Shown here piece after piece: positions 7,787 to 55,376 of a stretch of 64,000 nucleotides of DNA. Within the stretch, counting starts at the first letter, position 1; each line of letters starts with the position of its first letter. Both the position numbers and the translations under genes were made by a program. The notes under the pieces are model-generated. The model was not told where the DNA came from and ran no database searches. It saw only the letters and a program-made list of their open reading frames with translations. The stretch lies in the IMG/VR virus record IMGVR_UViG_3300011398_000004, positions 9,055-73,054 of that record. One strand, written 5' to 3'. The DNA is from a virus.

Positions 7787-9982
7787 ATGGAAGCATTGAA
7801 ATCATACCCGTCCTGGTTAGAGAAATATTATGAGCGAGGATTCCGTTTAATCTATTATCCGACGAAGAAGAAAAATCCTGAAGGCAAAGAAGCTTCGGAA
7901 TGGCCTAATCGCATCTACACAAAAGAAGACTATGTTCCAGGACAAAACATAGGAATCGTATTAGGTAATGAGATTGCACCGGGGCAATTCCTTGCCGATA
8001 TAGATTTCGATTGGATTCCTGGGATTGAATTGTCTGGCGGTATCCTTCCTGCTACGAAATTTGTATACGGCCACCCACCTTCCAAACCGATATCCCATGC
8101 ATTCTATACGACGCATGAACCTGTGATATCTAAAGCATATGAGAACATAGATTATAAAGGTGAAGGATTTGTCCCAGCAAAGAAGACGTTCGTCGAACTT
8201 CGAGGTGTAAAATACGATGGGTCTTATGGGAATCAGTCGATGGTGCCTCCATCTATTTGGACACCAAAAGGTGAGGAATTAACCCATCCTGGTGAAGTTC
8301 TTGAATTTTATAAATCCTCATCTATCAATGCAGAGATATCCTTCGTAGATGATCTACCGAGACGGACATTGCTATACGCTATAGCTTGTATGCTACATGC
8401 GTGGATTGCAAAAGGATCTTTTAAGCATGATATGCGATTAGCGGTTGCCGGGTTCTTACTATCTAATGATTTGACAAAAGAAGAAGCTACCTCTGTAATG
8501 CGTTCCGTTATCGAATATAATGGGCCTCACGATAAAGGTGACGAAGTTCTTGCAATTGAATCTACGTTAAGAGCTATCTCGAATAAGAAAGCATTCACAG
8601 GTAAGAGCAAATTGATTGAATTATTAGGAGAACATGGACATGCGATTGTAAAACAAATTATGAAATGGTTAGGTGGTTCGGAATTCGTTGAATATAAAGG
8701 AAAAGTGCTACCAAATCAAGAAAATATAAGAAGATCAATCGAATTACGGAATATTAATTTGTCGTTCAACGAATTTTCATGTAAGCCGTTGATTGAATAT
8801 CCAGAGATTTATAAAGGGGAATTAGAAGATAATATCGAACTTCATATTTGGTTAGAGACAGAGAGAAAACATCGTTTTCTACCTCCTAAGACCTTATATC
8901 AAGATGTAGTGAGAAATGTAGCATGGGAGAATCGTTTCCATCCCGTCATTGACTATCTTAAGGAACTCGTATGGGATGGTATTCCTCGTATCAATACGTG
9001 GGTGATTCAAACTGCGGGAGCCGATGATACCCCATATATTCAATCTGTTTCCTCGATTATGCTGATGGCGGCTGTTAAGCGAATAACCGATCCAGGATGT
9101 AAATACGATGAGATGGTAGTCTTCGAATCTGGTAAACAAGGATTATTGAAATCCTCCGCATTACGGACACTGTGCCCGAAAGACGAATGGTTTAGCGATA
9201 ATCTGCCGCTGAACTTGAAAGCCCAGGAAATCATGGAATTGACCATGGGAAAATGGATAATCGAAGTCGCGGAACTGAATAAGATAAGAAGCACTCAGAT
9301 GGATCACGTCAAATCCATGTTATCGAGGCAGGATGATACTGCACGGCTGGCTTACGCACACAATCCCAAGACACAACGACGACAATGTATCTTCGTTGGA
9401 ACTACGAACTCATATACTTATTTGACGGATGCAACTGGGAACCGACGATTCTGGCCTATTCGAGTTAATAAATTCGATATTGTATGGATACGTGAGAATA
9501 GAGATCAATTATGGGCAGAAGCTTTCATGCGAGCAGAAAAAGGTGATTCTATTCGTTTACCGGAAGAATTATATAAACCTGCGGAAGATGAACAAGAAAA
9601 TCGACTAGTTGATGATGATTGGAAGGATAAATTAGATCGTTTGTATGATCGTCAATATCAACGGATTTCGAATGAATCAATCTTAATCGAATTAGGAATA
9701 CCTATTGATAGAAGAACTCAAGCAGTATCTACGAGAATAGCTGAGATTATGCAGTCACTAGGATTTACGAGAGCTAGTCAGGTGCGTGATAAGGAAACAG
9801 GAAAACAAGCTCGAGGGTGGAAGAGGGAAGTTGTATATCCTGTGAAGACATGGGTTGAAAAGAGAAGATTATTAGATGAAAATGACACGAATATTGAGAT
9901 GGAGAAGGAAGAGGAACGTATGATGAAAGAAGAGGAAGAACTTTTGGATCGAGAGATGTCATTGAAGAACTTTACGAAGTGA
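7787..9982 (+). CDS. DNA primase/helicase (primase-polymerase N-domain plus VirE/D5-like NTPase)
   Basis: 731 aa; P-loop-like FESGKQGLLKSS and the VirE-family signature TDATGNRRFWPIRV; adjacent to the iteron array. Confidence 0.6.
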   Translation: MEALKSYPSWLEKYYERGFRLIYYPTKKKNPEGKEASEWPNRIYTKEDYVPGQNIGIVLGNEIAPGQFLADIDFDWIPGIELSGGILPATKFVYGHPPSKPISHAFYTTHEPVISKAYENIDYKGEGFVPAKKTFVELRGVKYDGSYGNQSMVPPSIWTPKGEELTHPGEVLEFYKSSSINAEISFVDDLPRRTLLYAIACMLHAWIAKGSFKHDMRLAVAGFLLSNDLTKEEATSVMRSVIEYNGPHDKGDEVLAIESTLRAISNKKAFTGKSKLIELLGEHGHAIVKQIMKWLGGSEFVEYKGKVLPNQENIRRSIELRNINLSFNEFSCKPLIEYPEIYKGELEDNIELHIWLETERKHRFLPPKTLYQDVVRNVAWENRFHPVIDYLKELVWDGIPRINTWVIQTAGADDTPYIQSVSSIMLMAAVKRITDPGCKYDEMVVFESGKQGLLKSSALRTLCPKDEWFSDNLPLNLKAQEIMELTMGKWIIEVAELNKIRSTQMDHVKSMLSRQDDTARLAYAHNPKTQRRQCIFVGTTNSYTYLTDATGNRRFWPIRVNKFDIVWIRENRDQLWAEAFMRAEKGDSIRLPEELYKPAEDEQENRLVDDDWKDKLDRLYDRQYQRISNESILIELGIPIDRRTQAVSTRIAEIMQSLGFTRASQVRDKETGKQARGWKREVVYPVKTWVEKRRLLDENDTNIEMEKEEERMMKEEEELLDREMSLKNFTK

Positions 9983-10280: not shown

Positions 10281-10329
10281 TTAGAGGAAGGAATTCGGCG
10301 GGAGGCGGGTTTTGGAGCTGTAAAAGGAC

Positions 10330-10654
10330 GTTTACACCGTTTACAGTGTTTACAAATCGAGGGTAAATCACGGTGTTCGTAAACATGGTGTTTACATGTC
10401 CAAAAAGCTGTAAGTTACTGGAAACAAACGAGTTGCGGCGTCACTGTTCTGTAAACGTAAACGGTAAACAACACCTCCTCCAACAGTTGCTTGGCGTTTC
10501 CCGGGACCGGGGCTTTTTGCGTAACTCTTTAAATACCATGTTTACACTGTTTACAGAGTTTACAAACCCTAAATCGGACCTGTAAATACCGGCATTTTTC
10601 TGTAAACTGGATTTGTAAACGGCATTTACCCTCGAACACCACCTGTTTACAGAA
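10330..10654. repeat. iteron array, about 15 copies of GTTTACA/TGTAAAC in both orientations; candidate origin of replication
   Basis: Direct reading shows gtttacaccgtttacagtgtttacaaa..., ...tgtaaacgtaaacggtaaaca..., ...gtttacactgtttacagagtttacaaa..., ...tgtaaactggatttgtaaacgg..., ...cctgtttacag. Non-coding, downstream of the primase/helicase. Confidence 0.5.
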
Positions 10655-11089
10655 AAGCTCTAGTGAACCACCCTCGGCACGACTAAATCCATCCTCGGAA
10701 TGAATTTATGAAGATAAATAGCATCTTTGACACATCGAGCCGGCTCCTCTGACCCTAAACTCGGCCAACAATACAGACTTTCTGAGTAAATTTTCCCGCA
10801 TTTCGGACACTTTCCTCGATTTTCGGAGCTCGGACGACGACTTTTTCCATCGGATGACCTCAGTTACGTCTTTTATCGTCAGTTACAGGTTTGAATAGAT
10901 CGAAATCCCATCATTGATGTGGTCTATCTACGTCTAAGTGCTTCCACCCACAACTTGCCGCAGATTGCAAGCTCTAAATTTCGAATCAACTCATTCCTAA
11001 ATCCACGTTTAGTAATCTAATGTAAGGATTACTGCCCGTGCCGTGCTTAATTATAGCACGGAACAGTTAAATCACCTAGTCTTATTTTT

Positions 11090-11104
11090 ATCAATGAAAA
11101 GATC
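11090..11104 (+). repeat. copy 1 of the 15-mer ATCAATGAAAAGATC
   Basis: Same 15-mer, or its reverse complement, recurs at 14011-14025, 14103-14117 and 14135-14149, on both sides of the high-GC island. Confidence 0.5.
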
Positions 11105-11116
11105 TAATTTAAAGAT

Positions 11117-11145
11117 TTGCAATCTTTATTAAAATGTGGTATAAT
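11117..11145 (+). promoter_or_regulatory. consensus sigma-70/sigma-A promoter TTGCAA-N17-TATAAT
   Basis: TTGCAA at 11117-11122, exactly 17-nt spacer, TATAAT at 11140-11145. Confidence 0.45.
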
Positions 11146-11152
11146 GATAAAT

Positions 11153-11497
11153 ATGCGAGAGAATTTCCCAAATAATGAGAGAAATATCTATTTCTCAGAA
11201 TATGTCGCACGTCGAAATATGATCAACAGATGTATAAATCCTGATTGTAAAGAATGGAAATGGTATGGTGTTAGAGGAATAAAGGTCTGTGATCGTTGGA
11301 TAAATAGTTTCTTAGATTTTCTTAAAGATATTGGTCCGAAACCATCACCAGGATTAACATTAGGAAGAATAGACAACGATGGGGATTATGAACCTGGGAA
11401 TGTTAAATGGTCAACTAGAAAAGAACAAGCAAATAATCGACGTAGACGAGAATACGATCGTTCACCAGATACAAGATTAAGGCGTAGGCGCATATAG
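11153..11497 (+). CDS. HNH homing endonuclease (YGVRGIKVC...RIDNDGDYEPGNVKWSTRKEQANNRRRR)
   Basis: ORF track 11117..11497 begins with TTG, which is the -35 hexamer itself, so the first in-frame ATG after the -10 box (11153) is preferred. Start is uncertain. Confidence 0.55.
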   Translation: MRENFPNNERNIYFSEYVARRNMINRCINPDCKEWKWYGVRGIKVCDRWINSFLDFLKDIGPKPSPGLTLGRIDNDGDYEPGNVKWSTRKEQANNRRRREYDRSPDTRLRRRRI

Positions 11498-11643
11498 TAA
11501 AGTTGTGCAATATTATCACTATAAGATCTTTTCATAGATCGGCTTCTAAAAGAAGAAATAAAAAGATGTAAACGGATATGGCTCACCTGTGCTATGCTTT
11601 TGTTTGCCGCCAATACCAGCGGCACTCACAAGGAGATAACGCG

Positions 11644-12027
11644 ATGAAATTCGATAACAAGATTGAAGCGATCAAGGCTCTCCGCAACATCCCTCGTGGA
11701 ACTGCGGAGATCTCAATTGCTACCGGCAAGCCTACGCTGGTAGTCAGTGGCGGTGGTCTGGGTTTCAAGGAGGCCAAGGATCTCGTCGAAGCCATCTGCG
11801 AGATGGGTGTCCAATATCATCTGTCTCGGCAGCGTAATGACATTCTGCGTGAATTCTTGCAGACCGAGCTCGCCAAGCTCCCCGCTCCGCCGTCCAACAT
11901 CCCCAACTGCAATCGTTGCGGGAATTCTCTCGTGGACCAGTTCTCGGCTCAGCCCTGCCAGACCTGCTGGGACAAGGAGCAGGATCGTCTGCGAGAAGCG
12001 CAACTCGACGATGACATTCACTTCTAA
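11644..12027 (+). CDS. ribosomal protein L7/L12 C-terminal-domain-like protein, first gene of the high-GC island
   Basis: AAGGAGATAACGCG then ATG. [11 protein letters not shown]...[16 protein letters not shown] matches the L7/L12 CTD core ([24 protein letters not shown]). High-GC codon usage unlike the flanking phage genes. Confidence 0.5.
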   Translation: [127 protein letters not shown]

Positions 12028-12314
12028 TGGTGACAGTCATCGTCATCCTAACCGTGTTTTTCGCGATCCTGCTAATGGTGGTAGGAGTTCCTCTTCTTCT
12101 CTTATGGATAGTCCGTAACTCTATCCAAGCGGCCAAGTATCGCGCTCTTGTTCATGCATCCTCGCAAGTAAGAACTGGATACACGATCGTTTACAAGAGC
12201 GGAAGAAAGACAGAGAAGATGGATCTTGATGGGGCCACGGAAGGAGAGGCCATGATGGATCTTGTCAAGAGGAAGGTCTCCTATGACAAAATTATTTCTT
12301 TAACGAAGAAATAA
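12027..12314 (+). CDS. small membrane protein (one TM helix)
   Basis: TAATG overlap with upstream gene; VIVILTVFFAILLMVVGVPLLLLWIV. Confidence 0.45.
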   Translation: MVTVIVILTVFFAILLMVVGVPLLLLWIVRNSIQAAKYRALVHASSQVRTGYTIVYKSGRKTEKMDLDGATEGEAMMDLVKRKVSYDKIISLTKK

Positions 12315-12400
12315 TAAGAACAAATCTGCTGGCTGCGCCGTGCTATATTACTACTGGCGCAGCGCATACCGCGCGAGCCACATAAAGGAGATAGGAAGAT

Positions 12401-12634
12401 ATGGGAGAGCCAATCAAAATGGAGCATATTCTGGCTCCTGCCGCAAAGGTCAAAGTGGCCTACGGCAACTGGCGCGAGACTTCTCTCGCGCTTGCTCCTG
12501 CCGAATTCAAGGCAGGCACTCAAATCGTCGGAACTTGCGGCTCCTGCTTGGAAGTCGTGGCCGCTGTCAAACTCAAACTCGTGCGTCTCCCCTTCGGGCG
12601 TGGGGAAGCGTGGAAATGCGAGAACTGCCGATGA
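12401..12634 (+). CDS. zinc-ribbon protein (CGSC...CENC)
   Basis: AAGGAGATAGGAAG then ATG at 12401. Confidence 0.45.
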   Translation: MGEPIKMEHILAPAAKVKVAYGNWRETSLALAPAEFKAGTQIVGTCGSCLEVVAAVKLKLVRLPFGRGEAWKCENCR

Positions 12635-12903
12635 TATTTCCACGCTGGAAACGTCGTTCCCATACAGCCAACGTCGCTGATCCCACACAGGTCACTGTGT
12701 GGGAGTTCGGCAAGCGTAACTTCCAAATCTCGCTCGTTGCCTCATGGGGCGTCGAGGCGAAGATTTACTTCATGGGCCGGAAGTTCTGGTCCTATGACGC
12801 GTGGTGGGCAATTCGTCTGTATGACTTCCTCGAGAACCAGTGGGAAGCTCAGCAGATGGATTACGAGGAAGACCCGATGGGTCGGTTGTCGGATTACGAA
12901 TAA
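12616..12903 (+). CDS. hypothetical Trp-rich protein
   Basis: Internal Met of ORF 12340..12903 (MRELPMIFPRWKRR...), overlapping the end of the upstream gene. The upstream part of that ORF looks like GC-driven read-through. Confidence 0.35.
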   Translation: MRELPMIFPRWKRRSHTANVADPTQVTVWEFGKRNFQISLVASWGVEAKIYFMGRKFWSYDAWWAIRLYDFLENQWEAQQMDYEEDPMGRLSDYE

Positions 12904-12916
12904 GGAGATAACGAAG

Positions 12917-13165
12917 ATGAGAAAACGCCAACAGGAGCTGTTCTTCGAGGACAGTTCCTGGAAAGGCTCGAATACCGAGCGTGATGTTATGAGATCCTTC
13001 GAAGCTGCTGGTCGGGAGACTGACATCAGTCACAATGAGCCGTTACCAGAGCGTCGGCGGCATCTGATGAAAGTCGTCTGCCTCGAGTGCTCGACGAAGT
13101 TTACGACGAGATCGCACATCCCGTCGTGTCCCGGCTGTGGAGGTTCGGATATCGAACTTCGGTGA
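12917..13165 (+). CDS. zinc-ribbon protein (CLEC...CPGC)
   Basis: TAAGGAGATAACGAAG then ATG; MRKRQQELFFED...VVCLECSTKFTTRSHIPSCPGCGGSDIELR. Confidence 0.45.
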   Translation: MRKRQQELFFEDSSWKGSNTERDVMRSFEAAGRETDISHNEPLPERRRHLMKVVCLECSTKFTTRSHIPSCPGCGGSDIELR

Positions 13166-13346
13166 ATTTCCGTGATCCTCGTTCGTTTGGACTACAGATA
13201 TGATCTCGCGGCGGTGCCCAAGACCCCGGCTGAACATATCAAGTGCCTGAACTTTCGATAACTTCGAGAGCGGGACGTAGGAGAACTTCTTTGAACTTGA
13301 TAGAATTAAGAACCTTTGAGCTTTTGAAAAAGAGCAAAATAAGATA

Positions 13347-13375
13347 TTGCAATCTTGCGGCGAGCGTGCTACGCT
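13347..13375 (+). promoter_or_regulatory. promoter TTGCAA-N17-TACGCT inside the island
   Basis: TTGCAAtcttgcggcgagcgtgcTACGCT. The -10 is the same type as the phage early promoter family. Confidence 0.35.
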
Positions 13376-13452
13376 GCATTACACGGTGCGGGTGCAATTC
13401 AGCACCCCACCACACGTCGTCAATCAGCGGCAGATAGAGAGCAGAGTGTATC

Positions 13453-13905
13453 ATGAGCAGGAATCAGCGCGGTGGTGGAGTTCAGGAGCAGGAGAAGCCG
13501 GAGACGGAAGTCGCGGTCGAGACCACGGCTGTCGCGGAGAAGGCCAATCGCACGGCGTTCTTCCATTCGCCGCATCCGAAGGTCGGGCAGGCGTCGCGGG
13601 TCAGCTACACGATCCCCGGCGTCTCGGGCAATATCGTCATCTTCCTCAGCATGTTCAAGGACGGCGTCGCGCCTCCCACGCTGACGTTCGATGTCGACCT
13701 CGCGGAGCCGAAGGCGGACGGGAAGCAGGCCAAGGCGGAGGCCGCGGCGCTCAAGGCTCAGGAGAAGGCCGAGAAGGCGCAGGCGCGTCTCGTCGCTCAG
13801 CAGGAGAAGGCGGTGGCGATCGCGGCCAAGGCGCAGCAGGCGTTGGACGCGGCCAAGGCTAAGGTCGGGACGGCGGAGCCGAAGACCGAGGAAGTCACGT
13901 CGTAG
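13453..13905 (+). CDS. hypothetical protein with Ala/Lys/Gln-rich C-terminal coiled-coil or histone-H1-like tail
   Basis: ORF track. Overlapping Arg/Leu-rich ORFs on other frames are GC artefacts. Confidence 0.4.
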   Translation: MSRNQRGGGVQEQEKPETEVAVETTAVAEKANRTAFFHSPHPKVGQASRVSYTIPGVSGNIVIFLSMFKDGVAPPTLTFDVDLAEPKADGKQAKAEAAALKAQEKAEKAQARLVAQQEKAVAIAAKAQQALDAAKAKVGTAEPKTEEVTS

Positions 13906-13962
13906 AGCTCGGATTCTGGTTGCAACCGATGGTATGATCGGTTGCAGTCTAGACGCTCGGAG

Positions 13963-14005
13963 ATAGCCGCAGAGCACTCTCCCTCTGCGGCTATTCTTTT
14001 GTTCT
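13963..14005 (+). terminator. rho-independent terminator closing the island operon
   Basis: Perfect 12-bp stem ATAGCCGCAGAG/CTCTGCGGCTAT, 8-nt loop, then TCTTTTGTTCT. It is preceded by a second hairpin at 13919-13947 (TTGCAACCGAT/ATCGGTTGCA). Confidence 0.55.
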
Positions 14006-14102
14006 AATTCATCTTTTCATTGATCGGACGGACTTCATAGGTAATGAATCTCCTCAGTTAGAGATTCATCCTTAAGATTAGATGTGCTATAATCTTCTGC
14101 GT

Positions 14103-14149
14103 ATCAATGAAAAGATCCTTTACTTCTTATCATTGATCTTTTCATTGAT
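14103..14149. promoter_or_regulatory. operator-like inverted repeat ATCAATGAAAAGATC, 17-nt spacer, GATCTTTTCATTGAT
   Basis: Two perfect 15-bp arms; the same 15-mer recurs at 11090 and 14011. Confidence 0.45.
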
Positions 14150-14221
14150 CGCGACGATCGGATGGATCATATCTAAGATCCTCTTTGATCAGTTACAGAT
14201 CGCTCATCGCGGCGCGGCTCC

Positions 14222-14252
14222 AAATGTACGAAACCGTACATTGTACGAAACC
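14222..14252. repeat. direct repeat GTACGAAACCGTACA, two copies
   Basis: gtacgaaaccgtacattgtacgaaaccgtacatgg. Confidence 0.4.
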
Positions 14253-14254
14253 GT

Positions 14255-14432
14255 ACATGGCACGGCATATGCTATAGCATATACCATGCCATGCCATAGT
14301 GTCATATGGCACGGTTTATGCTATAGCATAAACCCTGCCATGTCATAATACCGTATGGCATAGGATATGCTATAGCATATCCCATGCCATACCACGGCAT
14401 AGCATGGCACGAGGTATGCTAATAGCATATAC
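14255..14432. repeat. array of four copies of the 14-bp perfect palindrome TATGCTATAGCATA (one copy has a 1-nt insertion) at roughly 48-bp spacing, interleaved with GGCATGG/CCATGCC motifs
   Basis: Read directly: catatgctatagcatatacc, tttatgctatagcataaacc, atatgctatagcatatccc, gtatgctaatagcatatacc. Non-coding; the overlapping ORF 14082..14348 is spurious. Confidence 0.5.
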
Positions 14433-14769
14433 CATACCACATACACGCATACCAATATGTGCATGTGGCATGGTATATGCCCTTTGTACACCTAAAACCC
14501 TGTAAGTGTAGGTGTCTCAATAATAGGTCAAAACCCGTCTAAGGGGCAAACGAGCACCCTAACGGGTGCTGGCATGGCATGGCGGGTGCTACTCACCACG
14601 GGGCTAGGAATGGCAAATAGGGCATATGTCACTTTGTGTCACAAAGTAGCACCCGACACTATGTATCTACAGATATTTTGCGGCACCCTTACGATTTATG
14701 TTGCATTGACCTATATATATGTGCCATACTACGGGTTACTGCAATACCGCAGTGTATGAGAGTAGGTCA

Positions 14770-15433
14770 TATGACAAGAGCAGAGAAAAGAGCAGCCGCT
14801 AAGGCTGCTACGCTGGACACCGTAGCCAACAGCATGTTGGCTGCCGAAGTGGCACCCGCCGAAGTGACACCCGCCGAAGTGGCACCCGCCGAAGTGGCAC
14901 CCGCCGAAGTGGCACCCGCTACCATCCTGCCATTGTGGCTCAGTGCCATACTGGCGTCATTCGCTGGCAGTATCGGCAGTGCATACGCCGTCATTTGCAC
15001 TGGCTATGCCACGTCACCCGCGCGGGTGAAATACAGCATCACGGGACGTGGTGACGCCATTGTGGCGGTACTCTCCCACTTCGTGACACTGCCCCTGCAA
15101 GGTTCGCTCTTGAACCTGTACCCGACGGACACGGAAGTACCGGGGCATACGCTGCACTACGCTGGCGCTAACAGTGTCGGCCACACGTACCGCCTTAGCG
15201 GACACAAGGGTACATGGGTGTTTCGTGGTACGGCCCTTGCGATGCTCGGCACCGTACCGCCTGCCATGCTGCTTTGTGACGTGCCATTGTTGGGCGATAT
15301 CCGTACCGCCAATCTCACCACACCCGAAGCACTCAAGACACCGCACGGACTCACGGTACACAGTGCCATACTTGAAGTAGTGGCACCCGTCGAAGTGGCA
15401 CCCGTCGCACCCGTGGTGCCCGATGCCACGTAG
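14770..15433 (+). CDS. hypothetical protein with (PAEVA)x5 tandem repeat and hydrophobic segments
   Basis: 15-bp DNA tandem repeat gccgaagtggcaccc x5 at ~14848-14922; partial repeats again at the C-terminus (VAPVEVAPVAPVVP); high GC. Start chosen at ATG 14770, since the upstream part of ORF 14636 lies in lower-GC sequence. Confidence 0.4.
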
Positions 15434-15642
15434 GCGCATCACGCTAACACCCGATGGGGGTTTATCCCTCATGGTGTTAGGTGTGGTGTACGTGCTACTG
15501 CTCTTATACGTGTCACGCTAGGCACGTACCGCGCCACGTCACCCGATGCCACTGTGTACCAGTAGCGGTACACAGTGGCATCATAATGTACAGGCATAAG
15601 CCGTGCCACCCCCCAAAAGTGTAATCACGGCTGGCGCGGACG

Positions 15643-16140
15643 TCACAAAATTTGAGGTTTGATATTCATGGCGGAGTTAAAAACTTTAACACGTTCATGA
15701 GCTCTTTGTGCTAATATTTCTAATCTTTTAATTTCAATTTGGTTGATCATATTCAACATAGATATTCTATGTTCTTCAGCTAAAGCCAAATCCCGCTTAT
15801 ATATTCCTATTTCTCTCTTCTCTTCCATTCGCTTCTTTGTTCTTATACGGTGACAATTCGCGCAAACCAAGTCACATTTCTTAATTTCTTCTAATAGGAT
15901 ATTTAGACCAGTAGCATACAATAAATCTGATATATCTTTAAATTTGTCATCCGGGTCTCGATGATCGAAATCCATACATTCAGGTGGAAAACTATTATGA
16001 CAATCCATACAAGGATTGGTTCTTAAACTTTCGATCATTAGACGTCTTTGTTCTTTCCAACCTTCTCGACCATTTATCCATTTCATTTCACCCTCTCTAA
16101 TTCTTTCATTCCCCAATGGAACGCCCATCTTGCAACCCAT
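15643..16140 (-). CDS. HNH endonuclease
   Basis: CMDCHNSFPPECMDFDHRDP...CANCHRIR HNH/zinc motif; GAGGAG Shine-Dalgarno. Confidence 0.6.
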   Translation of the reverse strand: MGCKMGVPLGNERIREGEMKWINGREGWKEQRRLMIESLRTNPCMDCHNSFPPECMDFDHRDPDDKFKDISDLLYATGLNILLEEIKKCDLVCANCHRIRTKKRMEEKREIGIYKRDLALAEEHRISMLNMINQIEIKRLEILAQRAHERVKVFNSAMNIKPQIL

Positions 16141-19038: not shown

Positions 19039-19809
19039 CTACTGAGCATCGATGATCGAAGAAGCCGAAGAACTACCCTCCTCGATATAGTCGTCCGCCG
19101 TAGGCAGACGCCATGAGCCATCAGGCAAAATCACGACTTCGTGCTTAACACCGCGCATCACGACGATGTCCGTTTTCAGCCCAGGCTTCAGTTCTCGTTC
19201 GATTTCGAGAGGGACACCGACTCGTTCGGCAAATCCAGGGTTATCTGCTCTGTATTTCTTCAGATAATCCACGATTGCTCGACGAACCAGACGAGTTCGT
19301 GGTCGATCTGTATCTTCCTCAATCATCGTGAGCTCACGAACTTGGTCTGGAGTGAGTGCTACGTGAATCTTTGTCATGACTGCCATTTTGTTTTTCCTAT
19401 TCTGTTTACGACTTTCGTTAAGTAATTCTCTTGTCTGTTTATTTAAATATCTTATCTTTTCTCTTATTTTCTTGTTTACCTCCTCACGTGATAATCTTGC
19501 TATATGGTCAACACGTGGACGTTTATTTTTTACCTGTTCTTCCCATGTTGCCCAACGAACATTTCCTGGCTCATAATTTTTATTGTTGTCAATTCTTTCT
19601 AATGTTAAATTTATAGAAGTTTTTGGGCCAATATCCTTATAGAATGCTGAAAAAGAATGAGACCATTTTTCACAGACCTTAATTCCTCTTCCACCATACC
19701 ATTTGTAGCCTTGATATTCTTCATCTGTGCATCGGCGTATCATTTCTACCCATGCACGATATTCAGATGTACCACTCATTCCGTGGCGTTCATACTGTAA
19801 ATAGCGCAT
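19039..19809 (-). CDS. HNH homing endonuclease with C-terminal ribbon-helix-helix-like extension
   Basis: [34 protein letters not shown]...RIDNNKNYEPGNVRWATWEEQ, and C-terminal TRLVRRAIVDYLKKY. Confidence 0.6.
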   Translation of the reverse strand: MRYLQYERHGMSGTSEYRAWVEMIRRCTDEEYQGYKWYGGRGIKVCEKWSHSFSAFYKDIGPKTSINLTLERIDNNKNYEPGNVRWATWEEQVKNKRPRVDHIARLSREEVNKKIREKIRYLNKQTRELLNESRKQNRKNKMAVMTKIHVALTPDQVRELTMIEEDTDRPRTRLVRRAIVDYLKKYRADNPGFAERVGVPLEIERELKPGLKTDIVVMRGVKHEVVILPDGSWRLPTADDYIEEGSSSASSIIDAQ

Positions 19810-21126: not shown

Positions 21127-21438
21127 ATGGATAATCAGGCTTTTTCGATAGGACGAATTGTCCATTATAGGCTAAATGCCGATGATGCTGATCAGATCAA
21201 TCGTCGACGAATTGGGCGACGCCCAACTGCTAATGACGTAGCATGGCCTCAAGGAGCCGTAGCCCATGTAGGAAATATGGTTCACGAAAATGACGTATTT
21301 CCAATGATCATCACTCGCGTATGGGATACTGATCATATCAATGGGCAAGTTTTCCTCGATGGCAATGATCTCTATTGGGCTACATCGAGGAAATTTGGTG
21401 ACCAACCTGGGACATTCTGTTGGCCTACTCGAGTATGA
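21127..21438 (+). CDS. hypothetical protein
   Basis: ORF track. Confidence 0.4.
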   Translation: MDNQAFSIGRIVHYRLNADDADQINRRRIGRRPTANDVAWPQGAVAHVGNMVHENDVFPMIITRVWDTDHINGQVFLDGNDLYWATSRKFGDQPGTFCWPTRV

Positions 21439-22976
21439 TATCTTCTTCTCTTAAGGAAGAAGATATTGGTGATCCAATCGAAGCACTTGCAGCGATTGAA
21501 TTAGAATTACAGAAGAGGAATTGGCAAGATAATCCATCTTTATGGGTTAAAGAAAGACTGAATGAATATTTGTGGTCCTTACAGACTGTAGTATTACAAT
21601 CTGTAAGGGACCATCGTAGAACTCTTGTTCAGTCTTGTCATGCGATGGGTAAGTCGTGGCTCTCAGGAAGAGCCGCTGCATGGTGGATAGATGTATGGCC
21701 TGTAGGAACTGCTTTCGTCGTTACATCGGCTCCTAGCGGACCACAGGTAAAAGCGATTCTTTGGCGCGAAATTGGCCGCGCTTTCATGAAGGGTAAACTC
21801 GATGGAAGAGTTAACCAAACGGAATGGTATCGCTCAGTCGGAGGTAAAGAAGAAATCGTCGCCTTCGGTAGGAAGCCCGACGATCTCGATCCCGCTGCCT
21901 TCCAGGGTATTCACTCTCGTCGCGTCCTTGTTATTCTGGATGAAGCCAACGGTATCCGAGGTCCATTACACGAAGCCGCAGGATCCCTCATAGCTAATGA
22001 TGAATCTAAAATATTAATGATAGGAAATCCAGATGACCCTAATGGCGAATATTTTGAAGCGTCTAAACCGGGCTCTGGATGGAATGTGGTCAAGATCTCG
22101 GCGTTCGATACTCCAAACTTCACCGGAGAAGAACTTCCCCTCGACGTCCGTCAGCAGCTCATTGGAAAAACGTATGTTGAGGAGAAAAGAAGAAAGTGGG
22201 CACCTCTCTGGAGATGGAACGAAGAAGGAACAGCATGTATACCACCGGAAGGAGTAGATCCAGAGACTGACCCTAATTCGAATCCGATGTGGAAGTCGAA
22301 GATTTTGGGGGTTTTTCCTGAGAAGACTGAAGCAGGTGGGCTTATTCCTATTTCTTGGGTTAAAGCGGCACAATTACGAGATCTTTCCAAAACTACAATC
22401 GAGAAGAACGCTATTAACGAATTAGGTGCAGATATAGGTGGCGGCGGAGATGACTCAGCAACATGTCAGCGTAAAGGTGATGTTTATCGTATATTACGTT
22501 CTTATACAGAACCTGATACAATGATTCAATGTGGGATTATCATAGATGATTTGAATAACACAGGAGCATCGTGTGTTAAAGTTGATAAGATTGGTATTGG
22601 TTGGGGAGTTGTTAATCGTGGTCAGGAATTGAAGAGACCATTTATCGGTATTAATGTCGGTGAAGGGGCTACTGAAGACGATACTGCTTCGGATGAAAGA
22701 TTTGCGAATTTAAAAGCAGAATTATGGTGGAATGTTCGTAATATTTTCGAACGAGGACTTATCGACATTGATGCAGAGGATGAAGATCTCGCTGCTGAGT
22801 TATGTTCCATTCGTTATATAAGATTATCAAGTGGAAAGATTAAAATTGAGGATAAAAGACGAGATTCGAAAGGGAAGGTAATAGCATCACCTAATAGAGC
22901 GGAAGCATTGATGCTTGCGGCGACTCCTAAACGATTACACCGCGGTGTGATAGAATTAGAAGTATCATGGGGATGA
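21420..22976 (+). CDS. terminase large subunit
   Basis: 518 aa; Walker A-like SCHAMGKSWLSG and Walker B VLVILDEANGI, with a C-terminal nuclease-like region; immediately upstream of portal. Confidence 0.7.
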   Translation: MAYSSMISSSLKEEDIGDPIEALAAIELELQKRNWQDNPSLWVKERLNEYLWSLQTVVLQSVRDHRRTLVQSCHAMGKSWLSGRAAAWWIDVWPVGTAFVVTSAPSGPQVKAILWREIGRAFMKGKLDGRVNQTEWYRSVGGKEEIVAFGRKPDDLDPAAFQGIHSRRVLVILDEANGIRGPLHEAAGSLIANDESKILMIGNPDDPNGEYFEASKPGSGWNVVKISAFDTPNFTGEELPLDVRQQLIGKTYVEEKRRKWAPLWRWNEEGTACIPPEGVDPETDPNSNPMWKSKILGVFPEKTEAGGLIPISWVKAAQLRDLSKTTIEKNAINELGADIGGGGDDSATCQRKGDVYRILRSYTEPDTMIQCGIIIDDLNNTGASCVKVDKIGIGWGVVNRGQELKRPFIGINVGEGATEDDTASDERFANLKAELWWNVRNIFERGLIDIDAEDEDLAAELCSIRYIRLSSGKIKIEDKRRDSKGKVIASPNRAEALMLAATPKRLHRGVIELEVSWG

Positions 22977-40235: not shown

Positions 40236-40472
40236 GTGTGCGAAGAATTTCATTGCCTCCCGGCTGAGGCCATTGAAGCTATTGAAAATGATATAGATGG
40301 GATGTTATTCAAAATATTAGATGTTAGAATATATTCACAAGCGAAACACATTTATGATACAACTCCAATGGATAAACGTCCTAAGACAACGGCTATAAAT
40401 AAAGTTAGTGAAATCACAATGGGATTAGCAAGAGAGAGAATAGAAAAATTTAAGAAGAACAATAATGTTTAG
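40236..40472 (+). CDS. tail assembly chaperone, second component (candidate)
   Basis: Position; overlaps the tape-measure start. Confidence 0.35.
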   Translation: MCEEFHCLPAEAIEAIENDIDGMLFKILDVRIYSQAKHIYDTTPMDKRPKTTAINKVSEITMGLARERIEKFKKNNNV

Positions 40473-43400
40473 TCTTGGAGATCTTTTAATATTTTTGAGG
40501 CTAGAGGATCTAGCTAGTCCTGCTTTAAGAACAGTAGGATACGAAGCTACTTTGCTCGGACGTGGTATGCGCGAAGCCGGCGCGATTATGACTGCCGGGC
40601 TTACTCTTCCTATTGTTGGATTAGCTGGTGCTTCTATAAAAGCAGCAGCAGATTTTGAATCTTCATTTGCAGGTGTTCGTAAGACAGTAGAAGCTACAGA
40701 ACCAGAATTTTTACAACTCTCTGAAGCATTTCGTCAATTAGCTTTAGAGATTCCTGTAAGTGTAAATGAAATTAATAGAGTTGCGGAAGCTGGAGGTCAA
40801 TTAGGTGTTGCTAAACAAGATTTATTAGAATTCACGAAGACGATGGTTGCTATGGGAGTAACCACTAATCTTTCATCTGATGAAGCTGCTACAGGATTAG
40901 CGAAATTTGCGAATATCATTAAGAATGAAGCAGGTCCACAATTTGATCGATTAGGTGCTACTGTTGTAGAATTAGGTAATAAATCAGCAGCAACAGAATC
41001 TGAGATTTTAAATTTCGGTTTACGTCTTGCCGGTGCTGGTAAATTAGTAGGAATGACCGAAGGAGAAATTTTAGGTTTAGGAACAGCATTAGCATCTTTA
41101 GGTCTTCGTTCTGAATCTGGAGGAACAGCCTTCTCTAAAGTTATGATGAATATGTCAAAAGCTGTTTCTATGGGAGGGAAAGAATTAGAAGAATTTGCTA
41201 AAGTTTCTGGGATGTCGGTAGAACAATTTAAGAAAGCATTTCAAACTGATGCTGCTGGAGCTATAGCTTCATTCGTAGAAGGTTTAGGACAAGTTAAAGC
41301 GGCTGGTGGAAATCTATTTATAACTCTTGAAGATCTTAATGTGAATGAAGTTCGTTTAAGGGATAATCTTTTACGAACTGCTGGCGCGGGTAATATGGTT
41401 CGGGATATGATGAATTTGGGTAATAAGGCCCATGAAGAAAATATTGCATTAATAAATGAAGCACAAAAAAGATATGCTACATATGATTCTCAGATGAAGA
41501 TATTTAGTAATACTATAGAAGATGTTAAGATTACATTAGGAAATGCCTTATTACCGATGATCTTATCTGTGATAAATACTTTCTCTGGGCCTTTTATTGG
41601 AACTATAAGATTTCTAGCTCAAGCATTCTTAGATTCTAATATTGTCATTAAAACTTTTATCGTGACTGTATTAGGTGTCATTGCCATCGCTGGTCCAGTA
41701 TTGATATTTTTTGGTCAGTTATTGATGTCTATCGGTAATATATCTAGAGCATGGCCGTTATTAACGGGGAATTTGTTAGCAGGCTCTGCGGCTATGGCCG
41801 CGAATACTGCTGCTGTCACAGCGAATACTGCTGCACTCGCAGCTCAAAGTGCAGCATGGGGAACTCTTGCAACGACAGCAACTGTTGCAACTCCTCCAGT
41901 CGTAACATTTGGAGCAGCTTTATGGGCTGCTGCTGGACCGATTGCATTAGTTCTTGGATTACTCGCTGCTATAACTCTTGCTGTAAGGGCTATGGGATTT
42001 GAATGGTCAACAGCTCTTACACTGACTTTCCCTCCTCTCGGAATGGCGATGAAAGCATGGGATAATGTAAAAGATGCTCTTGAACGTATTAAGCCATATT
42101 GGGATTCTACATACCAAGTATTACAGCAGTTATCAGAACTTCTTAATAATACTGTCGTAGTCTCTGTAAATTTTCTTAAGGATGCTTTCTTATATTTAAC
42201 TAATGAAGTTATAAAATTCTATCCTCCTTTTTCCGCTGCTAAACTGATATTTATGGCTATGAATACAGTCTGGGATGATATGAATGGTAGATTAACAACT
42301 TTAAAATCTAAATGGAAAGAAGTATCTGAAGCGATTCTTAATTCTATCCCGATGTATAGAGATTTTGTATTCATATCTCTTATTGCTCAATATGGTTTGA
42401 AAGAAGCTAAAAATAGATTAGATGAATTATCTAGTTCGATGAAAGAAAATGCTGATCGAGTGAGAGGACAAATATCTGGAACTACGCAGTTAAGTTCAGG
42501 ATGGGAAGCTTATCGAAAGAGTATAAATGATACGAATATTGGTGTAATGGAAGCTGCTGTGTTAAGTCGTAATTTACAAGATAGAATAGATGGTATGACT
42601 AGGGCACAGAAGGATGCCATTGAAGCTGGAAAAGGAAGACAATATAACGATAAACAAATTCTTACAGGATTAGAAGAATTAAATTTAGCTGAAGGCGTTA
42701 CTGTAGAAATGATTAATTTGTATCTGAAGCAGACCAACGCTGCTACCAAAGAAACAAAAGATCATGAAACTGCACTTCAAAAAGCTCATAAGATTTTAAC
42801 TGAATGGAATTTGATGATCGATAAAACTAATTTCAATTTACAGAAAGGAGGAAATAATCTTAGTGATTTTACTGCGGCTATCAAGAAATTTACTGATGTA
42901 GCGGATGCAGCGATTATTAAGAATGCTCTAATAATAAAGAGTATTCAATTAGATATAGATAAAACAGTACGTGAACGGACAATGACTACTTATGAACTTA
43001 GAATTGATGCTGCTAAAAGATTAGCTGCAGAAGAAAGACGTGGTATTGACTTCTCTAAAGATAGTGCTATGCAAGCCGGTATACTCGCTGATAAAAGATT
43101 AAACGATACAATAAGAGTAATATTAGCTGAAGAAAAATTAAATGATACTGTAGAAAATGCTCAAAGGATTTACGATAATGCAATAGAAAAAGCAAAAAGA
43201 TTAGCTGCAGAAAGAGAAGCATTTGCCGGGAGTTTAGGATCACTTAGTAATGCATTCACACAACTCTCACAAATCGTGGGAGAAAATGCTAATGGATTTT
43301 TTAAATGGGGAGCAACAGCCGCAGGAGCAGCGAATTTAGGCGCTAACGCAGGTATTCAGATGGCAGTAGGTTTTGATTTAGTAGCAAAAGGTGGAAAAAA

Positions 43401-45051
43401 TGCTGCTGCTGGAATGATTTCCTTAGCTGCTGGAGCTATGGCTGCTGCCTCTGCATTGATGGCAGCTACTCAATCTGCTAATGCTGCTGAAAATGCTATT
43501 AGTGGAGCGATGACTGGCGCTGCAATAGGTCAATCGATTTTTCCAGGATATGGAGCTGCTGTAGGTGCTGTAGTCGGTGCTATTGTAGGATGGGCAAGAG
43601 CTGCTGGAAATGCTCGTAGAGAAGCTGAAGCATGGACTAAAGAAGTTGAGAAGAATAAAGTAGCACTCGATAAAGAATGGGGTGGTCTCGATAATCTTCA
43701 AAAGAAGATTGATGCGATAATCCCCGGTTTTATATTATTCATGGATGTAACTAAAAAAGGAATGGAAACACAAGGAAAGTTCATAGAATATGTAGTAGAA
43801 CAATATAAGAAGATACAAGCAGCAGCTGATGATATGACTAATGGATTTAAAGCTGTTATGGATTTCTTTTCAATTGGATGGGCTAAAATCGGAAAAGATG
43901 TAGAAGACGCAACAAAAGCAGTTAATGATGCGAAGATAGAATATTATAATCTAGGACTTACTGGTAAAGCTACAACTAGTCAACTAGAAGAAGCTGCGAA
44001 GAAGCTTAAGGAAGCTCAAGATAAATTAACTCTAGCTTTACAATATCAATTTAGTGCCGGTGAAAAAGCTAAACAAAAATTAGCAGATTTAGGATATCAG
44101 GCTATTATCACATTCGAAGCTGCTATGGTCGCAACTGGTAATTACAGTAAAGCATTAGCAGCCGCCGCTCCTGGTCTAGCCCTCCTTGAAAAAGCATATC
44201 GAGATCTTGGTTTAGAAGTAGAGAATGTAGCTCTCAAACATTTACTCATTGCAGGAGCAATATTAGAAAAGAATCCAGAATTAATGGCTGCAATTGATGG
44301 ACATGCAGCTTCATTAAGAGCTATGGGTAGATTGGGTCTTGGTAATGCTGAATCATTCGCAGCGATGCAGCGAACAGGAACCGAGATGTATGTAAGATTA
44401 CAAAGAGAAGTAGAAATTTTAGGAGGAGATACTCGTGATGCTCTTCTGCCAATGCAAGGATATTTACATGCTGCTGAGGCAGAAGCCAGACGTCTCGGTA
44501 TTCCATTAGATGCAAATACTCAAAGTATGATAGATCAAAGTGTACAATTAGGGATATGGGAAGTAGATGGGATGTCAGCAACTGATAAACTCATTGCTGG
44601 AATAGAATCTCTTGTAGGGAAAATGGATATTCTTATATCAAGGATATTAGGAATTCCTGATGGAGAGTATAATATATTTGAATATTTTCAAAGAGTGAAT
44701 TTACCACCTGTAGGTCCTGGCGGCGGAGGCGGTGGAGGTGGAGGCGGCGGAGGTGATAATGGAGGCGGAGGCGGAGATGGGAGTGGTGGTGGGGATGGAA
44801 ACGGAGATGCTGCTCGTTTTGGAGGAGATGTTGCTCGAGGATCATTTTTCCGTAATTTTGGTAGTGGATTAACATCTTCTCTTCAAACTACTGAAGTAAA
44901 TTTTCAAAGTAATAGAAATAGTTCATCGACTCAACTTGGGTCTAGTAATAATGATGGTGATATATTAAAACGTCTTATTAAGGATCTTCCTAGAGCAATG
45001 AAGATTGCGGTATCAGATGCGATGGTATTACGTGGAGTTAATAAAAAATAA
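40465..45051 (+). CDS. tail tape measure protein
   Basis: 1528 aa, with an N-terminal phage tail tape-measure domain signature (AGGQLGVAKQDLLEFTKTMVAMGV), TM helices, long coiled coils, and a poly-Gly tract GGGGGGGGGGGGDNGGGGGDGSGGGDGNGD. Confidence 0.8.
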   Translation: MFSLGDLLIFLRLEDLASPALRTVGYEATLLGRGMREAGAIMTAGLTLPIVGLAGASIKAAADFESSFAGVRKTVEATEPEFLQLSEAFRQLALEIPVSVNEINRVAEAGGQLGVAKQDLLEFTKTMVAMGVTTNLSSDEAATGLAKFANIIKNEAGPQFDRLGATVVELGNKSAATESEILNFGLRLAGAGKLVGMTEGEILGLGTALASLGLRSESGGTAFSKVMMNMSKAVSMGGKELEEFAKVSGMSVEQFKKAFQTDAAGAIASFVEGLGQVKAAGGNLFITLEDLNVNEVRLRDNLLRTAGAGNMVRDMMNLGNKAHEENIALINEAQKRYATYDSQMKIFSNTIEDVKITLGNALLPMILSVINTFSGPFIGTIRFLAQAFLDSNIVIKTFIVTVLGVIAIAGPVLIFFGQLLMSIGNISRAWPLLTGNLLAGSAAMAANTAAVTANTAALAAQSAAWGTLATTATVATPPVVTFGAALWAAAGPIALVLGLLAAITLAVRAMGFEWSTALTLTFPPLGMAMKAWDNVKDALERIKPYWDSTYQVLQQLSELLNNTVVVSVNFLKDAFLYLTNEVIKFYPPFSAAKLIFMAMNTVWDDMNGRLTTLKSKWKEVSEAILNSIPMYRDFVFISLIAQYGLKEAKNRLDELSSSMKENADRVRGQISGTTQLSSGWEAYRKSINDTNIGVMEAAVLSRNLQDRIDGMTRAQKDAIEAGKGRQYNDKQILTGLEELNLAEGVTVEMINLYLKQTNAATKETKDHETALQKAHKILTEWNLMIDKTNFNLQKGGNNLSDFTAAIKKFTDVADAAIIKNALIIKSIQLDIDKTVRERTMTTYELRIDAAKRLAAEERRGIDFSKDSAMQAGILADKRLNDTIRVILAEEKLNDTVENAQRIYDNAIEKAKRLAAEREAFAGSLGSLSNAFTQLSQIVGENANGFFKWGATAAGAANLGANAGIQMAVGFDLVAKGGKNAAAGMISLAAGAMAAASALMAATQSANAAENAISGAMTGAAIGQSIFPGYGAAVGAVVGAIVGWARAAGNARREAEAWTKEVEKNKVALDKEWGGLDNLQKKIDAIIPGFILFMDVTKKGMETQGKFIEYVVEQYKKIQAAADDMTNGFKAVMDFFSIGWAKIGKDVEDATKAVNDAKIEYYNLGLTGKATTSQLEEAAKKLKEAQDKLTLALQYQFSAGEKAKQKLADLGYQAIITFEAAMVATGNYSKALAAAAPGLALLEKAYRDLGLEVENVALKHLLIAGAILEKNPELMAAIDGHAASLRAMGRLGLGNAESFAAMQRTGTEMYVRLQREVEILGGDTRDALLPMQGYLHAAEAEARRLGIPLDANTQSMIDQSVQLGIWEVDGMSATDKLIAGIESLVGKMDILISRILGIPDGEYNIFEYFQRVNLPPVGPGGGGGGGGGGGGDNGGGGGDGSGGGDGNGDAARFGGDVARGSFFRNFGSGLTSSLQTTEVNFQSNRNSSSTQLGSSNNDGDILKRLIKDLPRAMKIAVSDAMVLRGVNKK

Positions 45052-54612: not shown

Positions 54613-54879
54613 TCATCTTCGATCTATGACAATACCTAGACCTAAGATTCTAGCTTCGAGGATGGAACGGTCTAACTTAGCCTGTAGTAAGCGAGCACTA
54701 CATTCTGTAGCTAATTCTTCCACAGATTTCAATTGACACGATAGAATGTCTCGATATCGAGTGATGTCCTTTGTACTCTGATTACTATAATCTTGAATCG
54801 ATTGTTGAGTAATCATCTCGAATTTTGTCATTCGACGTTCTTTAACCTTCGGTTTACGTGACGCAGTTTTCTTTTTCAT
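54613..54879 (-). CDS. hypothetical protein
   Basis: ORF track. Confidence 0.35.
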   Translation of the reverse strand: MKKKTASRKPKVKERRMTKFEMITQQSIQDYSNQSTKDITRYRDILSCQLKSVEELATECSARLLQAKLDRSILEARILGLGIVIDRR

Positions 54880-55376
54880 TTATCTTCCTCATTAAATTTT
54901 CCGTCTTTTCCTCTTGGTTGTAATATGTGACTATCTTTATAAGCACCTCTTTCTATTCTTTTATGATGATGTTCTTTTACGTGTTCAGTTTCATCTTTAG
55001 GCTCAAGATTATCTGGATGATCATTTAATCTATTTTCATCTATATGATGAGCGATTTCATTTGGTAAAAGTAATCTTCCAAGTTTTTCTTCTAAATTAAT
55101 ATCAGCACGTTTAGCGTATGGAAACCATGACTTACGATGATAATCAGGCTTATAGATTAAGAAATATCCATTTCTAATTATTTCTCCTCCTTTCCAATTA
55201 GGATTATCAATTCCAAATTTATCTTTTCTTGTTAGTTTTTCTCTTTGAAGAATTAGACCAATAATTCCTTTTCCTACATGAAGTTGTTTGGCAATGTCAG
55301 AAATCTTTTGACCAGATGTATATAGACTTATTACCTCCTTCTTTAAAATATCGTAATCTTGGCGACTTCTAGTCAT
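54876..55376 (-). CDS. HNH endonuclease
   Basis: EIAHHIDENRLNDHPDNLEPKDETEHVKEHHH. Confidence 0.6.
   Translation of the reverse strand: MTRSRQDYDILKKEVISLYTSGQKISDIAKQLHVGKGIIGLILQREKLTRKDKFGIDNPNWKGGEIIRNGYFLIYKPDYHRKSWFPYAKRADINLEEKLGRLLLPNEIAHHIDENRLNDHPDNLEPKDETEHVKEHHHKRIERGAYKDSHILQPRGKDGKFNEEDK

Follow-up and report, generated by a model that had tools for sequence, protein, structure and literature searches.

Described systems and the locus

Sigma-54 (RpoN) promoters are considered a bacterial means of keeping activator-dependent genes tightly gated. They have a GG at -24 and a GC at -12 within the consensus YTGGCACGrNNNTTGCW and are activated by enhancer-binding AAA+ proteins. The subject of this report is an array of palindromes in a stretch of viral DNA of 64,000 nucleotides (nt), positions 9,055 to 73,054 of IMG/VR virus record IMGVR_UViG_3300011398_000004, and this whole stretch is referred to here as the window. 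The array lies in a gap of 865 bp between a gene for a protein of 150 amino acids (13453-13905) and a gene for a protein of 220 amino acids (14771-15433). Our reading of the sequence, which we hold with slightly more confidence than doubt, is that the array is an amplified cluster of sigma-54-type -24/-12 sites that would regulate the next gene, the one for the 220-amino-acid membrane protein. Compared with bacterial sigma-54 promoters, the sites in the window have an identical core and spacing, they score in the range of sites that are bound in Salmonella, their orientation towards the gene is kept in relatives, and repeated palindromes stand upstream where activator sites would be expected. 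Unlike the bacterial promoters, they are phage-borne, form face-to-face pairs around a shared centre and are arranged in tandem, and no activator gene is nearby. In Salmonella, the divergent sigma-54 pairs hycA/hypA and zraP/hydH stand back to back and do not overlap. The members of these pairs are >100 bp apart (PMC3844500). We rate the feature in the window as a known type of site, the sigma-54 type, in an unfamiliar carrier and arrangement. A literature search gave no description of phages that systematically use sigma-54 promoters, arrays or sequestration, absence from such a search being no proof.

The locus also resembles other systems in part. The sopC centromere of F consists of twelve 43-bp repeats, each with an inverted repeat. 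Arrays of this type and the array in the window are both built of tandem units of about 45-50 bp that each contain a palindrome; unlike them, the window has no partition genes, its array is not conserved, and its motif matches a polymerase recognition signature. A phage moron is a gene of deviant GC content, inserted between phage genes together with a promoter and a terminator of its own. The gene for the 220-amino-acid protein is moron-like in that it lies in a high-GC block with promoter-like sites of its own upstream and a hairpin downstream and has no known phage function. Unlike the case of morons, the whole high-GC block is conserved across the phage family, and the proposed promoter is of the sigma-54 and not of the sigma-70 type. 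The untranslated repeat region of T5-like phages is the 'injection stop signal' region, and T5 carries DnaA boxes (Davison, bioRxiv 10.1101/866236). That region and the gap in the window are both long, non-coding, packed with repeats and palindromes, and provided with sites, putative ones in the window, for a host DNA-binding protein. In contrast, phage T5 itself (L151, AY587007) has no sigma-54-like sites in the corresponding region, the window phage is not T5-like, and a role in DNA entry finds no support here.

Anatomy of the array

A first-pass annotation of this DNA, made from the sequence by a model, had reported four copies of a 14-bp palindrome spaced about 48 bp apart. The repeats are real, and their copy number, period and unit size had to be corrected. 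Three copies are exact, being TATGCTATAGCATA at 14268, 14317 and 14366 (a search allowing up to 2 mismatches gave 3 matches, 0.33 were expected, and none of 100 shuffles reached 3), and the fourth, TATGCTAATAGCATA at 14415-14429, carries an insertion of 1 nt. From centre to centre the copies are 49, 49 and 49.5 bp apart. The true repeat unit is a palindrome of 36 bp, ATGGCAYRGnnTATGCTATAGCATAnnCCnTGCCAT, which is far longer than the 14 bp reported. The three regular units are self-complementary at 32-34 of their 36 positions and the degenerate unit of 37 bp at 24 of 37, and the copies are 78-81% alike. The centre gap of 5 nt in the fourth unit is a frequent variant in other phages. The elements of this part of the DNA are as follows.

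14225 to 14257, plus strand: two tandem 16-bp palindromes TGTACGAAACCGTACA, at 14225-14240 and 14242-14257, of the form TGT-N10-ACA, abutting the first sigma-54-like site
14257 to 14292: palindrome unit 1, two face-to-face sites at 14258-14275 (plus, 19.6 bits) and 14274-14291 (minus, 17.9 bits)
14306 to 14341: palindrome unit 2, face-to-face sites at 14307-14324 (plus, 19.8 bits) and 14323-14340 (minus, 16.2 bits)
14355 to 14390: palindrome unit 3, face-to-face sites at 14356-14373 (plus, 15.1 bits) and 14372-14389 (minus, 16.5 bits)
14404 to 14440: palindrome unit 4 with a central 1-nt insertion, a site at 14405-14422 (plus, 16.3 bits) and a degenerate half at 14422-14439 (minus, 11.4 bits)
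14466 to 14483, plus strand: single sigma-54-type site TGGCATGGTATATGCCCT, 14.4 bits, the counterpart of the site kept in the relatives L272/L273
14488 to 14647: short inverted repeats of the leader, 14488-14494 with 14509-14515, 14554-14559 with 14564-14569, and 14631-14638 with 14640-14647
14575 to 14592, plus strand: weaker sigma-54-type site TGGCATGGCGGGTGCTAC, 12.5 bits, the nearest upstream of the gene for the 220-amino-acid protein
15591 to 15608, minus strand: sigma-54-type site, 17.9 bits, pointing back into that gene

The TGTACGAAACCGTACA pair, which had been noticed earlier as a direct repeat and placed about 4 nt off, is a candidate for an activator-binding sequence, and the site at 14466-14483 is likely the ancestral copy of the promoter. 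Among the leader repeats, ACACCTA/TAGGTGT (14488-14494 and 14509-14515) and ACTTTGTG/CACAAAGT (14631-14638 and 14640-14647) were found as the first-pass annotation had them. It had also assumed that the region is non-coding, and this holds because the open reading frame (ORF) at 14082-14348 has no counterpart in the relative L003.

Match to the sigma-54 promoter signature

Each half of a palindrome reads TGGCAY-N5-ATGCT, which is the -24/-12 signature of sigma-54 promoters, and the two halves of a unit have an A/T-rich centre in common. The GG and the GC are exactly 10 nt apart in all eight halves of the array and in the sites at 14466, 14575 and 15591, and all 11 occurrences of TGGCA-N7-TGC in the 64 kb fall between 14258 and 15608. 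For scoring, a matrix was made from 29 intergenic sigma-54 sites of Salmonella that were bound in chromatin immunoprecipitation on microarrays (PMC3844500, Table 3). All 13 matches of at least 10 bits in the window fall in 14258-15608, and 10 matches reach at least 14 bits where 0.9 are expected per shuffled window. The halves of the array score 15.1-19.8 bits, seven of the eight being at 15 bits or above and the degenerate one at 11.4, compared with 15.8-22.8 bits for the real Salmonella sites. The array has ATGC where the consensus has TTGC; the ATGC form of the -12 element is present in the Salmonella hycA, fdhF and zraP sites (PMC3844500).

The rest of the window was also scored. In the 59.8 kb outside 11501-15700 there is no match of at least 10 bits, as against 5.7 +/- 2.4 in dinucleotide shuffles (minimum 1 in 60 shuffles), which suggests selection against stray sites outside the island, the high-GC block described below.

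Conservation in relatives of the phage

Relatives of the phage were sought through homologs of two flanking proteins, which led to seven further contigs. L002 is a near-identical metagenomic contig of 64,284 bp whose array region is identical. L004 equals L003 and is the sole real relative from the metagenome scan, the other matches coming from the low-complexity sequence AEVAPAEV; a scan of viral sequences for relatives of the 220-amino-acid protein and of the primase-helicase gave none. Conservation was tested on six non-redundant orthologous intergenic regions totalling 3264 nt. These contain 12 matches of at least 12 bits; the expected number is 0.13, and none of 500 shuffles had more than 2. 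There is at least one site in every region, and 10 of the 12 are on the strand of the downstream gene. In the relatives, one or two plus-strand sites are typically kept, 50-230 nt ahead of the downstream gene; the GC element of the matches is 17-234 nt away from the start of this gene, which is the ortholog of the 220-amino-acid gene in L270, L271, L277 and L003. The remaining intergenic sequence is unalignable among the relatives. The sites in the gap, those of the relatives at 12 bits or above, are arranged as follows.

L277: 1 site, single
L274: 1 site, single
L270 and L271: 2 sites, tandem
L272 and L273: 1 site and a weaker TGGTAC copy, direct repeat
L003: 3 sites, 2 on the plus strand and 1 on the minus strand
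L269: 4 sites, partly palindromic, with the same TATGCTATAGCATA core
window: 10 sites, four palindromes and two single sites

The array is shared in part by L269, a 78%-identical relative, and the palindromes are absent from L003, L270/L271, L272/L273, L274 and L277 despite the same gene order. L272/L273 have the flanks of the window, that is, TGTACGAAACCGTACA twice and then TGGCATGGCATATGCCCTTTGTACACC, without the array. Since L272 has the same flanks and no array, a promoter-like unit is taken to have been amplified in inverted and tandem form to give the array. Since the relatives keep sites and most of them have no array, the conserved part is taken to be a sigma-54-type promoter. Thus, from the comparison of these sequences, the array is a lineage-specific amplification of the conserved putative promoter of the next gene. 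The TGTACGAAACCGTACA pair is also found upstream of the sigma-54-like sites in L272, and different repeats stand there in other relatives. The flanking boxes, then, vary between relatives and the sigma-54-like motif does not, and a box that varies with the phage suggests a phage factor while an invariant motif suggests a host factor.

Double sites in unrelated phages

The relaxed palindrome TGGCAY-N5-WTGCW-NN-WGCAW-N5-RTGCCA was searched for in IMG/VR and in bacterial and archaeal genomes, with the following results.

IMG/VR, N5 spacer, centre gap of 4 nt: at least 119 stretches
IMG/VR, N5 spacer, centre gap of 5 nt (the geometry of the fourth copy in the window): at least 120 more stretches
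IMG/VR, N7 spacer as a control: 1 match
596 Gb of bacterial and archaeal genomes: 15 matches, mostly in small contigs of metagenome bins

At 50-70% protein identity, 118 of the viral loci form 53-62 groups, their GC content ranges from 30 to 65%, and none of the at least 53 other phage groups has island proteins in common with the window. A motif of 34-35 bp that is present in several hundred unrelated phage contigs of 30-65% GC argues for a universal host factor. The free positions follow the extended sigma-54 consensus, 67% having a T ahead of TGGCA, 97% an R behind TGGCAY and 87% TTGC. In the other phages the N5 spacers lack symmetry (1.7 of 6 positions symmetric), and the motif is therefore not a hairpin. 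The same viral loci have 331 additional single sites compared with about 33 expected. In the face-to-face pairs the centre gaps are confined to 3-5 nt, and tandem arrays are common, with periods of 40-93 bp. The palindromes occupy long non-coding regions, examples being a terminator, then an array, and then a strong sigma-70 promoter.

The position of the double sites relative to packaging genes was also recorded. In the 44 loci among L017-L134 that bear a terminase, all 58 palindromes are upstream of the large-terminase gene, by 272-4389 nt, and they typically precede small genes ahead of the terminase. A cos or pac function was not adopted for the wider class, the single sites being dispersed and the arrays occurring also in early regions. 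In the IMG/VR contig L025 (2055-4550) there are four repeats of a module, each with two tandem sigma-54-like sites 26-38 nt apart, and by ORF calls all of these sites are oriented against the small flanking genes.

The motif is also found in very large phage contigs of 330-480 kb and in T5-like phages. Pseudomonas phage vB_PpS_SYP (L152) has 12 matches in its first 36 kb where 1.5 are expected; all but one are intergenic, and of the seven intergenic single sites six run in the direction of the genes. In the T5-like Vibrio phage D419, DnaA boxes and six sigma-54-like sites, which score 10-19.5 bits, occupy a region that is the counterpart of the untranslated repeat region of T5. These sites are beside genes with the annotations 'DNA transfer protein' and 'DNA binding protein'; we take these to be the pre-early genes A1 and A2. 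The hosts of these cultured carriers, Vibrio and Pseudomonas, are known to have RpoN. Phages that carry the double-site motif number in the hundreds, are unrelated, and are probably lytic.

Matches of Klebsiella phages to a synthetic array were rejected as chance, being inside the tail-sheath gene. The untranslated region of T5 has annotated direct repeats C and palindromes E-I (9468-9640); their sequence is AATGAGAATCATTATCATTC, which we liken to the Fur-box consensus. Similar motifs, GAATGAGA/ATTCTCAT, stand ahead of a sigma-54 double site at 3760-3860 of vB_PpS_SYP.

Weighing the explanations

Several observations weigh against the sigma-54 reading of the array. The first position of TTGC is A and not T in all copies of the array. 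The spacers of the palindromes in the window are symmetric at 4-5 of 6 positions, compared with 1.7 of 6 in other phages, and such spacers would suit a dimeric protein or a hairpin equally well. Neither an RpoN box nor an enhancer-binding ATPase with a GAFTGA motif turned up in the window or the loci. The array is 330-510 nt from the start codon of the 220-amino-acid gene, which is far for a promoter, and its minus-strand halves, which face a convergent gene at its 3' end, have no visible gene to serve. In the metagenomic loci the single sites are not clearly co-oriented with the flanking genes (36 versus 26, from crude gene calls).

The main rival explanation is that binding of sigma-54 polymerase is itself the purpose, the sites being a trap, a sink or a roadblock and not a means of transcription. 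Scarce holoenzyme would be soaked up on replicating genomes, which would damp host sigma-54 responses, or transcription units would be insulated. The lack of an activator gene in the window and the loci and the weak gene orientation in the metagenomic loci, which count against promoters, fit such a role. So do the face-to-face symmetry, selected in hundreds of phages and nearly never found in bacteria (15 matches in 596 Gb), the limit of 3-5 nt on the centre gap, the frequency of tandem arrays, and the placement of palindromes in long stretches of non-coding DNA, often with a terminator on one side and a strong sigma-70 promoter on the other. Moreover, sigma-54 closed complexes are stable without an activator (PMC3844500). 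What speaks for ordinary promoters instead is that the family of the window conserves one or two sites oriented at the downstream gene and that the single sites of vB_PpS_SYP follow gene orientation. A binding-only role thus explains the symmetry better and the conserved orientation in the window's family less well, and we consider it rather unlikely.

The face-to-face sigma-54 double sites may be a widespread and apparently undescribed phage element that is selected for capturing host sigma-54 polymerase in either orientation, a proposal that we make tentatively and regard as possible rather than probable. The class consists of palindromes of 34-35 bp, TTGGCAYR-N4-TTGCW-N2/3-WGCAA-N4-YRTGCCAA, often in tandem. 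Such an element might be a sponge against sigma-54-dependent stress or repair responses, an insulator at module boundaries, or a switchable two-way promoter. Under this proposal the four-unit array in the window would be among the largest examples.

It is improbable, in our view, that the array is an operator array for a dimeric protein of the phage or the island and that the likeness to sigma-54 sites is coincidence or mimicry. The near-perfect 36-bp palindromes with symmetric spacers, their regular 49-bp spacing and the small zinc-ribbon-like proteins encoded by the island are what such an array would have. However, the motif is found in 53 or more unrelated phage groups, which range from 30 to 65% GC and share no island proteins with the window, its free positions fit the sigma-54 consensus, and the relatives keep asymmetric single sites and not palindromes. 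The suggestion in the first-pass annotation of an operator for a dimeric regulator therefore splits: the 15-bp inverted repeat to the left of the array looks like an operator, and it is unlikely that the palindromes are an array for a phage regulator. Co-variation of a site with the lineage, as expected of an operator array, was found for the ATCTTTTCATTGAT boxes that include this inverted repeat and not for the palindromes.

Another doubtful explanation is that the array is a recent and neutral inverted and tandem amplification, in which only the ancestral copies, 14466 and/or 14575, matter. The identical flanks without an array in L272/L273 would be expected from this, and so would copies that are 78-81% alike with symmetric spacers, as after a recent duplication. 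On the other hand, the array is identical in L002 and partly common to the 78%-identical L269, all but one of its eight halves score at least 15 bits, and palindromic and tandem forms recur in other phages.

The first-pass annotation had also proposed a partition site or a second replication origin. The architecture is like that of tandem palindrome arrays such as F sopC, and there is an adjoining AT-richer stretch with 8 GATC sites. A centromere-like partition site of the island or an origin is nevertheless very unlikely. The scanned neighbours and both arms gave HNH proteins, a ligase, helicases and VapE and nothing like ParA, ParB, Rep or an integrase, the array is missing from most relatives, and the motif is also present in T5-like phages and in phage contigs of 330-480 kb. 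No initiator flanks the array, and a better candidate for an origin is at 10300-10660, where about 18 GTTTACA/TGTAAAC iterons in both orientations lie in non-coding DNA directly after the gene for the VapE-type primase-helicase (7787-9982). From its sequence and position this iteron field is likely the replication origin of the phage. What stands of the earlier interpretation is that the region is a regulatory site of the island. As a separate observation, L269 has a strong sigma-54-like site (1635-1652, minus strand, 18.9 bits) at the start of a non-coding stretch of 1 kb whose place in the gene order is that of the iteron region of the window, and the window has no such site there.

That the array acts as RNA, as four tandem hairpins in a long leader transcribed from the extended -10 element at 14085, is hardly credible even with that promoter-like element upstream and a fold energy far below that of shuffles (-93.6 kcal/mol, z = -8.2), because such a z-score arises from any palindrome, the hairpins are missing in relatives, the spacers are not complementary in other phages and no Rfam family matches. 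A hairpin or cruciform was rejected on the same grounds of non-complementary spacers in other phages and palindromes missing in relatives.

The left part of the gap

The part of the gap to the left of the array contains the following elements.

13962 to 13995, plus strand: terminator-like hairpin with a 13-pair stem followed by the T run CTTTTGTTCT, which ends the upstream gene for the 150-amino-acid protein (13453-13905)
14011 to 14149: ATCTTTTCATTGAT boxes at 14011-14024 (plus), 14103-14116 (minus), 14124-14137 (plus, 2 mismatches) and 14136-14149 (plus)
14085 to 14093, plus strand: extended -10-like sigma-70 element TGCTATAAT, read from the sequence, about 10 nt upstream of the inverted-repeat operator
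14114 to 14201: 8 GATC sites within about 90 bp, more densely clustered than anywhere else in the window

An equivalent of the terminator-like hairpin was found in the relatives. The inverted pair ATCAATGAAAAGATC-N17-GATCTTTTCATTGAT reported earlier was recovered at 14103-14117 and 14135-14149 with 100% complementarity, and this perfect 15-bp pair is included in the ATCTTTTCATTGAT boxes, which have 8 matches in the window compared with 2.0 expected. The element TGCTATAAT was not listed by a consensus promoter scan because its -35 is poor. The sequence of the box differs among relatives, other boxes replacing ATCTTTTCATTGAT in L270 and L272. The stretch 14000-14200, which is AT-richer and dense in GATC, is read as a sigma-70 promoter with an operator for a putative phage-specific regulator, and would be a control element separate from the array.

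The ATCTTTTCATTGAT box recurs at 11090-11103 (minus) and 11526-11539 (plus), by -10-like elements, the former upstream of the HNH gene at 11117 and the latter at the left edge of the high-GC block. In addition, CAGTTACAG is found at 14055 and 14190 and twice more near 10862-10890. The recurrence of ATCTTTTCATTGAT and CAGTTACAG suggests a small phage regulon. The orthologous regions are GATC-rich in L003, L269 and L274 and not in L270 and L277.

The downstream gene

The gene downstream of the array and the elements that follow it are given here.

14771 to 15433, plus strand: gene for the 220-amino-acid protein, which has AEVAP repeats at its N terminus, a single predicted membrane helix and, at the C terminus, a domain without a family match
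15545 to 15582: 38-bp palindrome after this gene, with 16-nt arms and a 6-nt loop

The gene is real and constrained, because codon-position identity with L003 is 0.81, 0.92 and 0.45, which indicates purifying selection, and homolog searches showed that its orthologs are conserved among the relatives. No match of the protein was found in Pfam, PHROG or PADLOC, an exact-protein look-up was empty, and structure prediction with 3 sequences gave a predicted local distance difference test score of 35, which is unusable. The tandem pentapeptide repeats AEVAP/AEVTP at 14840-14920 vary in number between near-identical phages, L002 having 15 residues fewer, and more distant orthologs have TPVDT or TTPVAE repeats in the same place. 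L003 has at about 1221-1275 the same arrangement as is found after the gene in the window, with a different palindrome and a conserved minus-strand site (16.1 bits).

The phage genome and the island

The window is most of the genome of a tailed phage of about 64 kb and about 40% GC. It contains a terminase gene at 21420-22976, a portal gene, genes for a ligase and helicases besides the VapE-type primase-helicase, and an ORF of 1528 amino acids at 40465-45051 that is tape-measure-sized and assigned by size only. HNH endonuclease genes number at least 8, and the HNH-type genes listed are at these positions.

2199 to 2579, 6183 to 6776, 11117 to 11497, 15643 to 16140, 19039 to 19809, 54876 to 55376 and 60191 to 60607: HNH-type genes

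These genes are unusually numerous, several have a common YGGRGIKVC... domain, and two flank the high-GC block. The palindrome region had been placed beside a foreign island and is actually within it, in the high-GC island of 50-70% GC at about 11550-15640. Searches of Pfam, PHROG and PADLOC left every island protein without an assigned function, and no integrase, repressor, ParA/ParB or Rep was seen among the scanned proteins, which were those of the island, its neighbours and both arms and not every ORF of the window. Apart from two transfer RNAs, no Rfam family was found in the window, and the array has no Rfam match. A near-identity search of the region and the structural genes against cultured phages gave no match, nor did a distant blastn search of the palindrome array against phages, and there is no near match to the window phage in the phage and genome collections.

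Proposed working and significance

If the array is a cluster of sigma-54-type sites that regulates the next gene, as we propose, host sigma-54 RNA polymerase would form stable closed complexes at the sites. These complexes would be opened by a host activator that depends on ATP and perhaps binds the neighbouring TGT-N10-ACA palindromes, and the plus-strand sites would then drive rightward transcription into the gene for the 220-amino-acid protein. The minus-strand halves may fire leftward or may simply raise the local occupancy by polymerase. A single palindrome would not be able to hold two polymerases simultaneously.

If this is true, a family of soil phages puts a conserved membrane-protein gene under sigma-54 control and would thus be reading a signalling pathway of its host. 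The symmetric double form, which hundreds of phages without relation to each other carry, cultured ones of Vibrio and Pseudomonas among them, and bacteria almost never do, would then point to a phage-specific use of the host sigma-54 polymerase.

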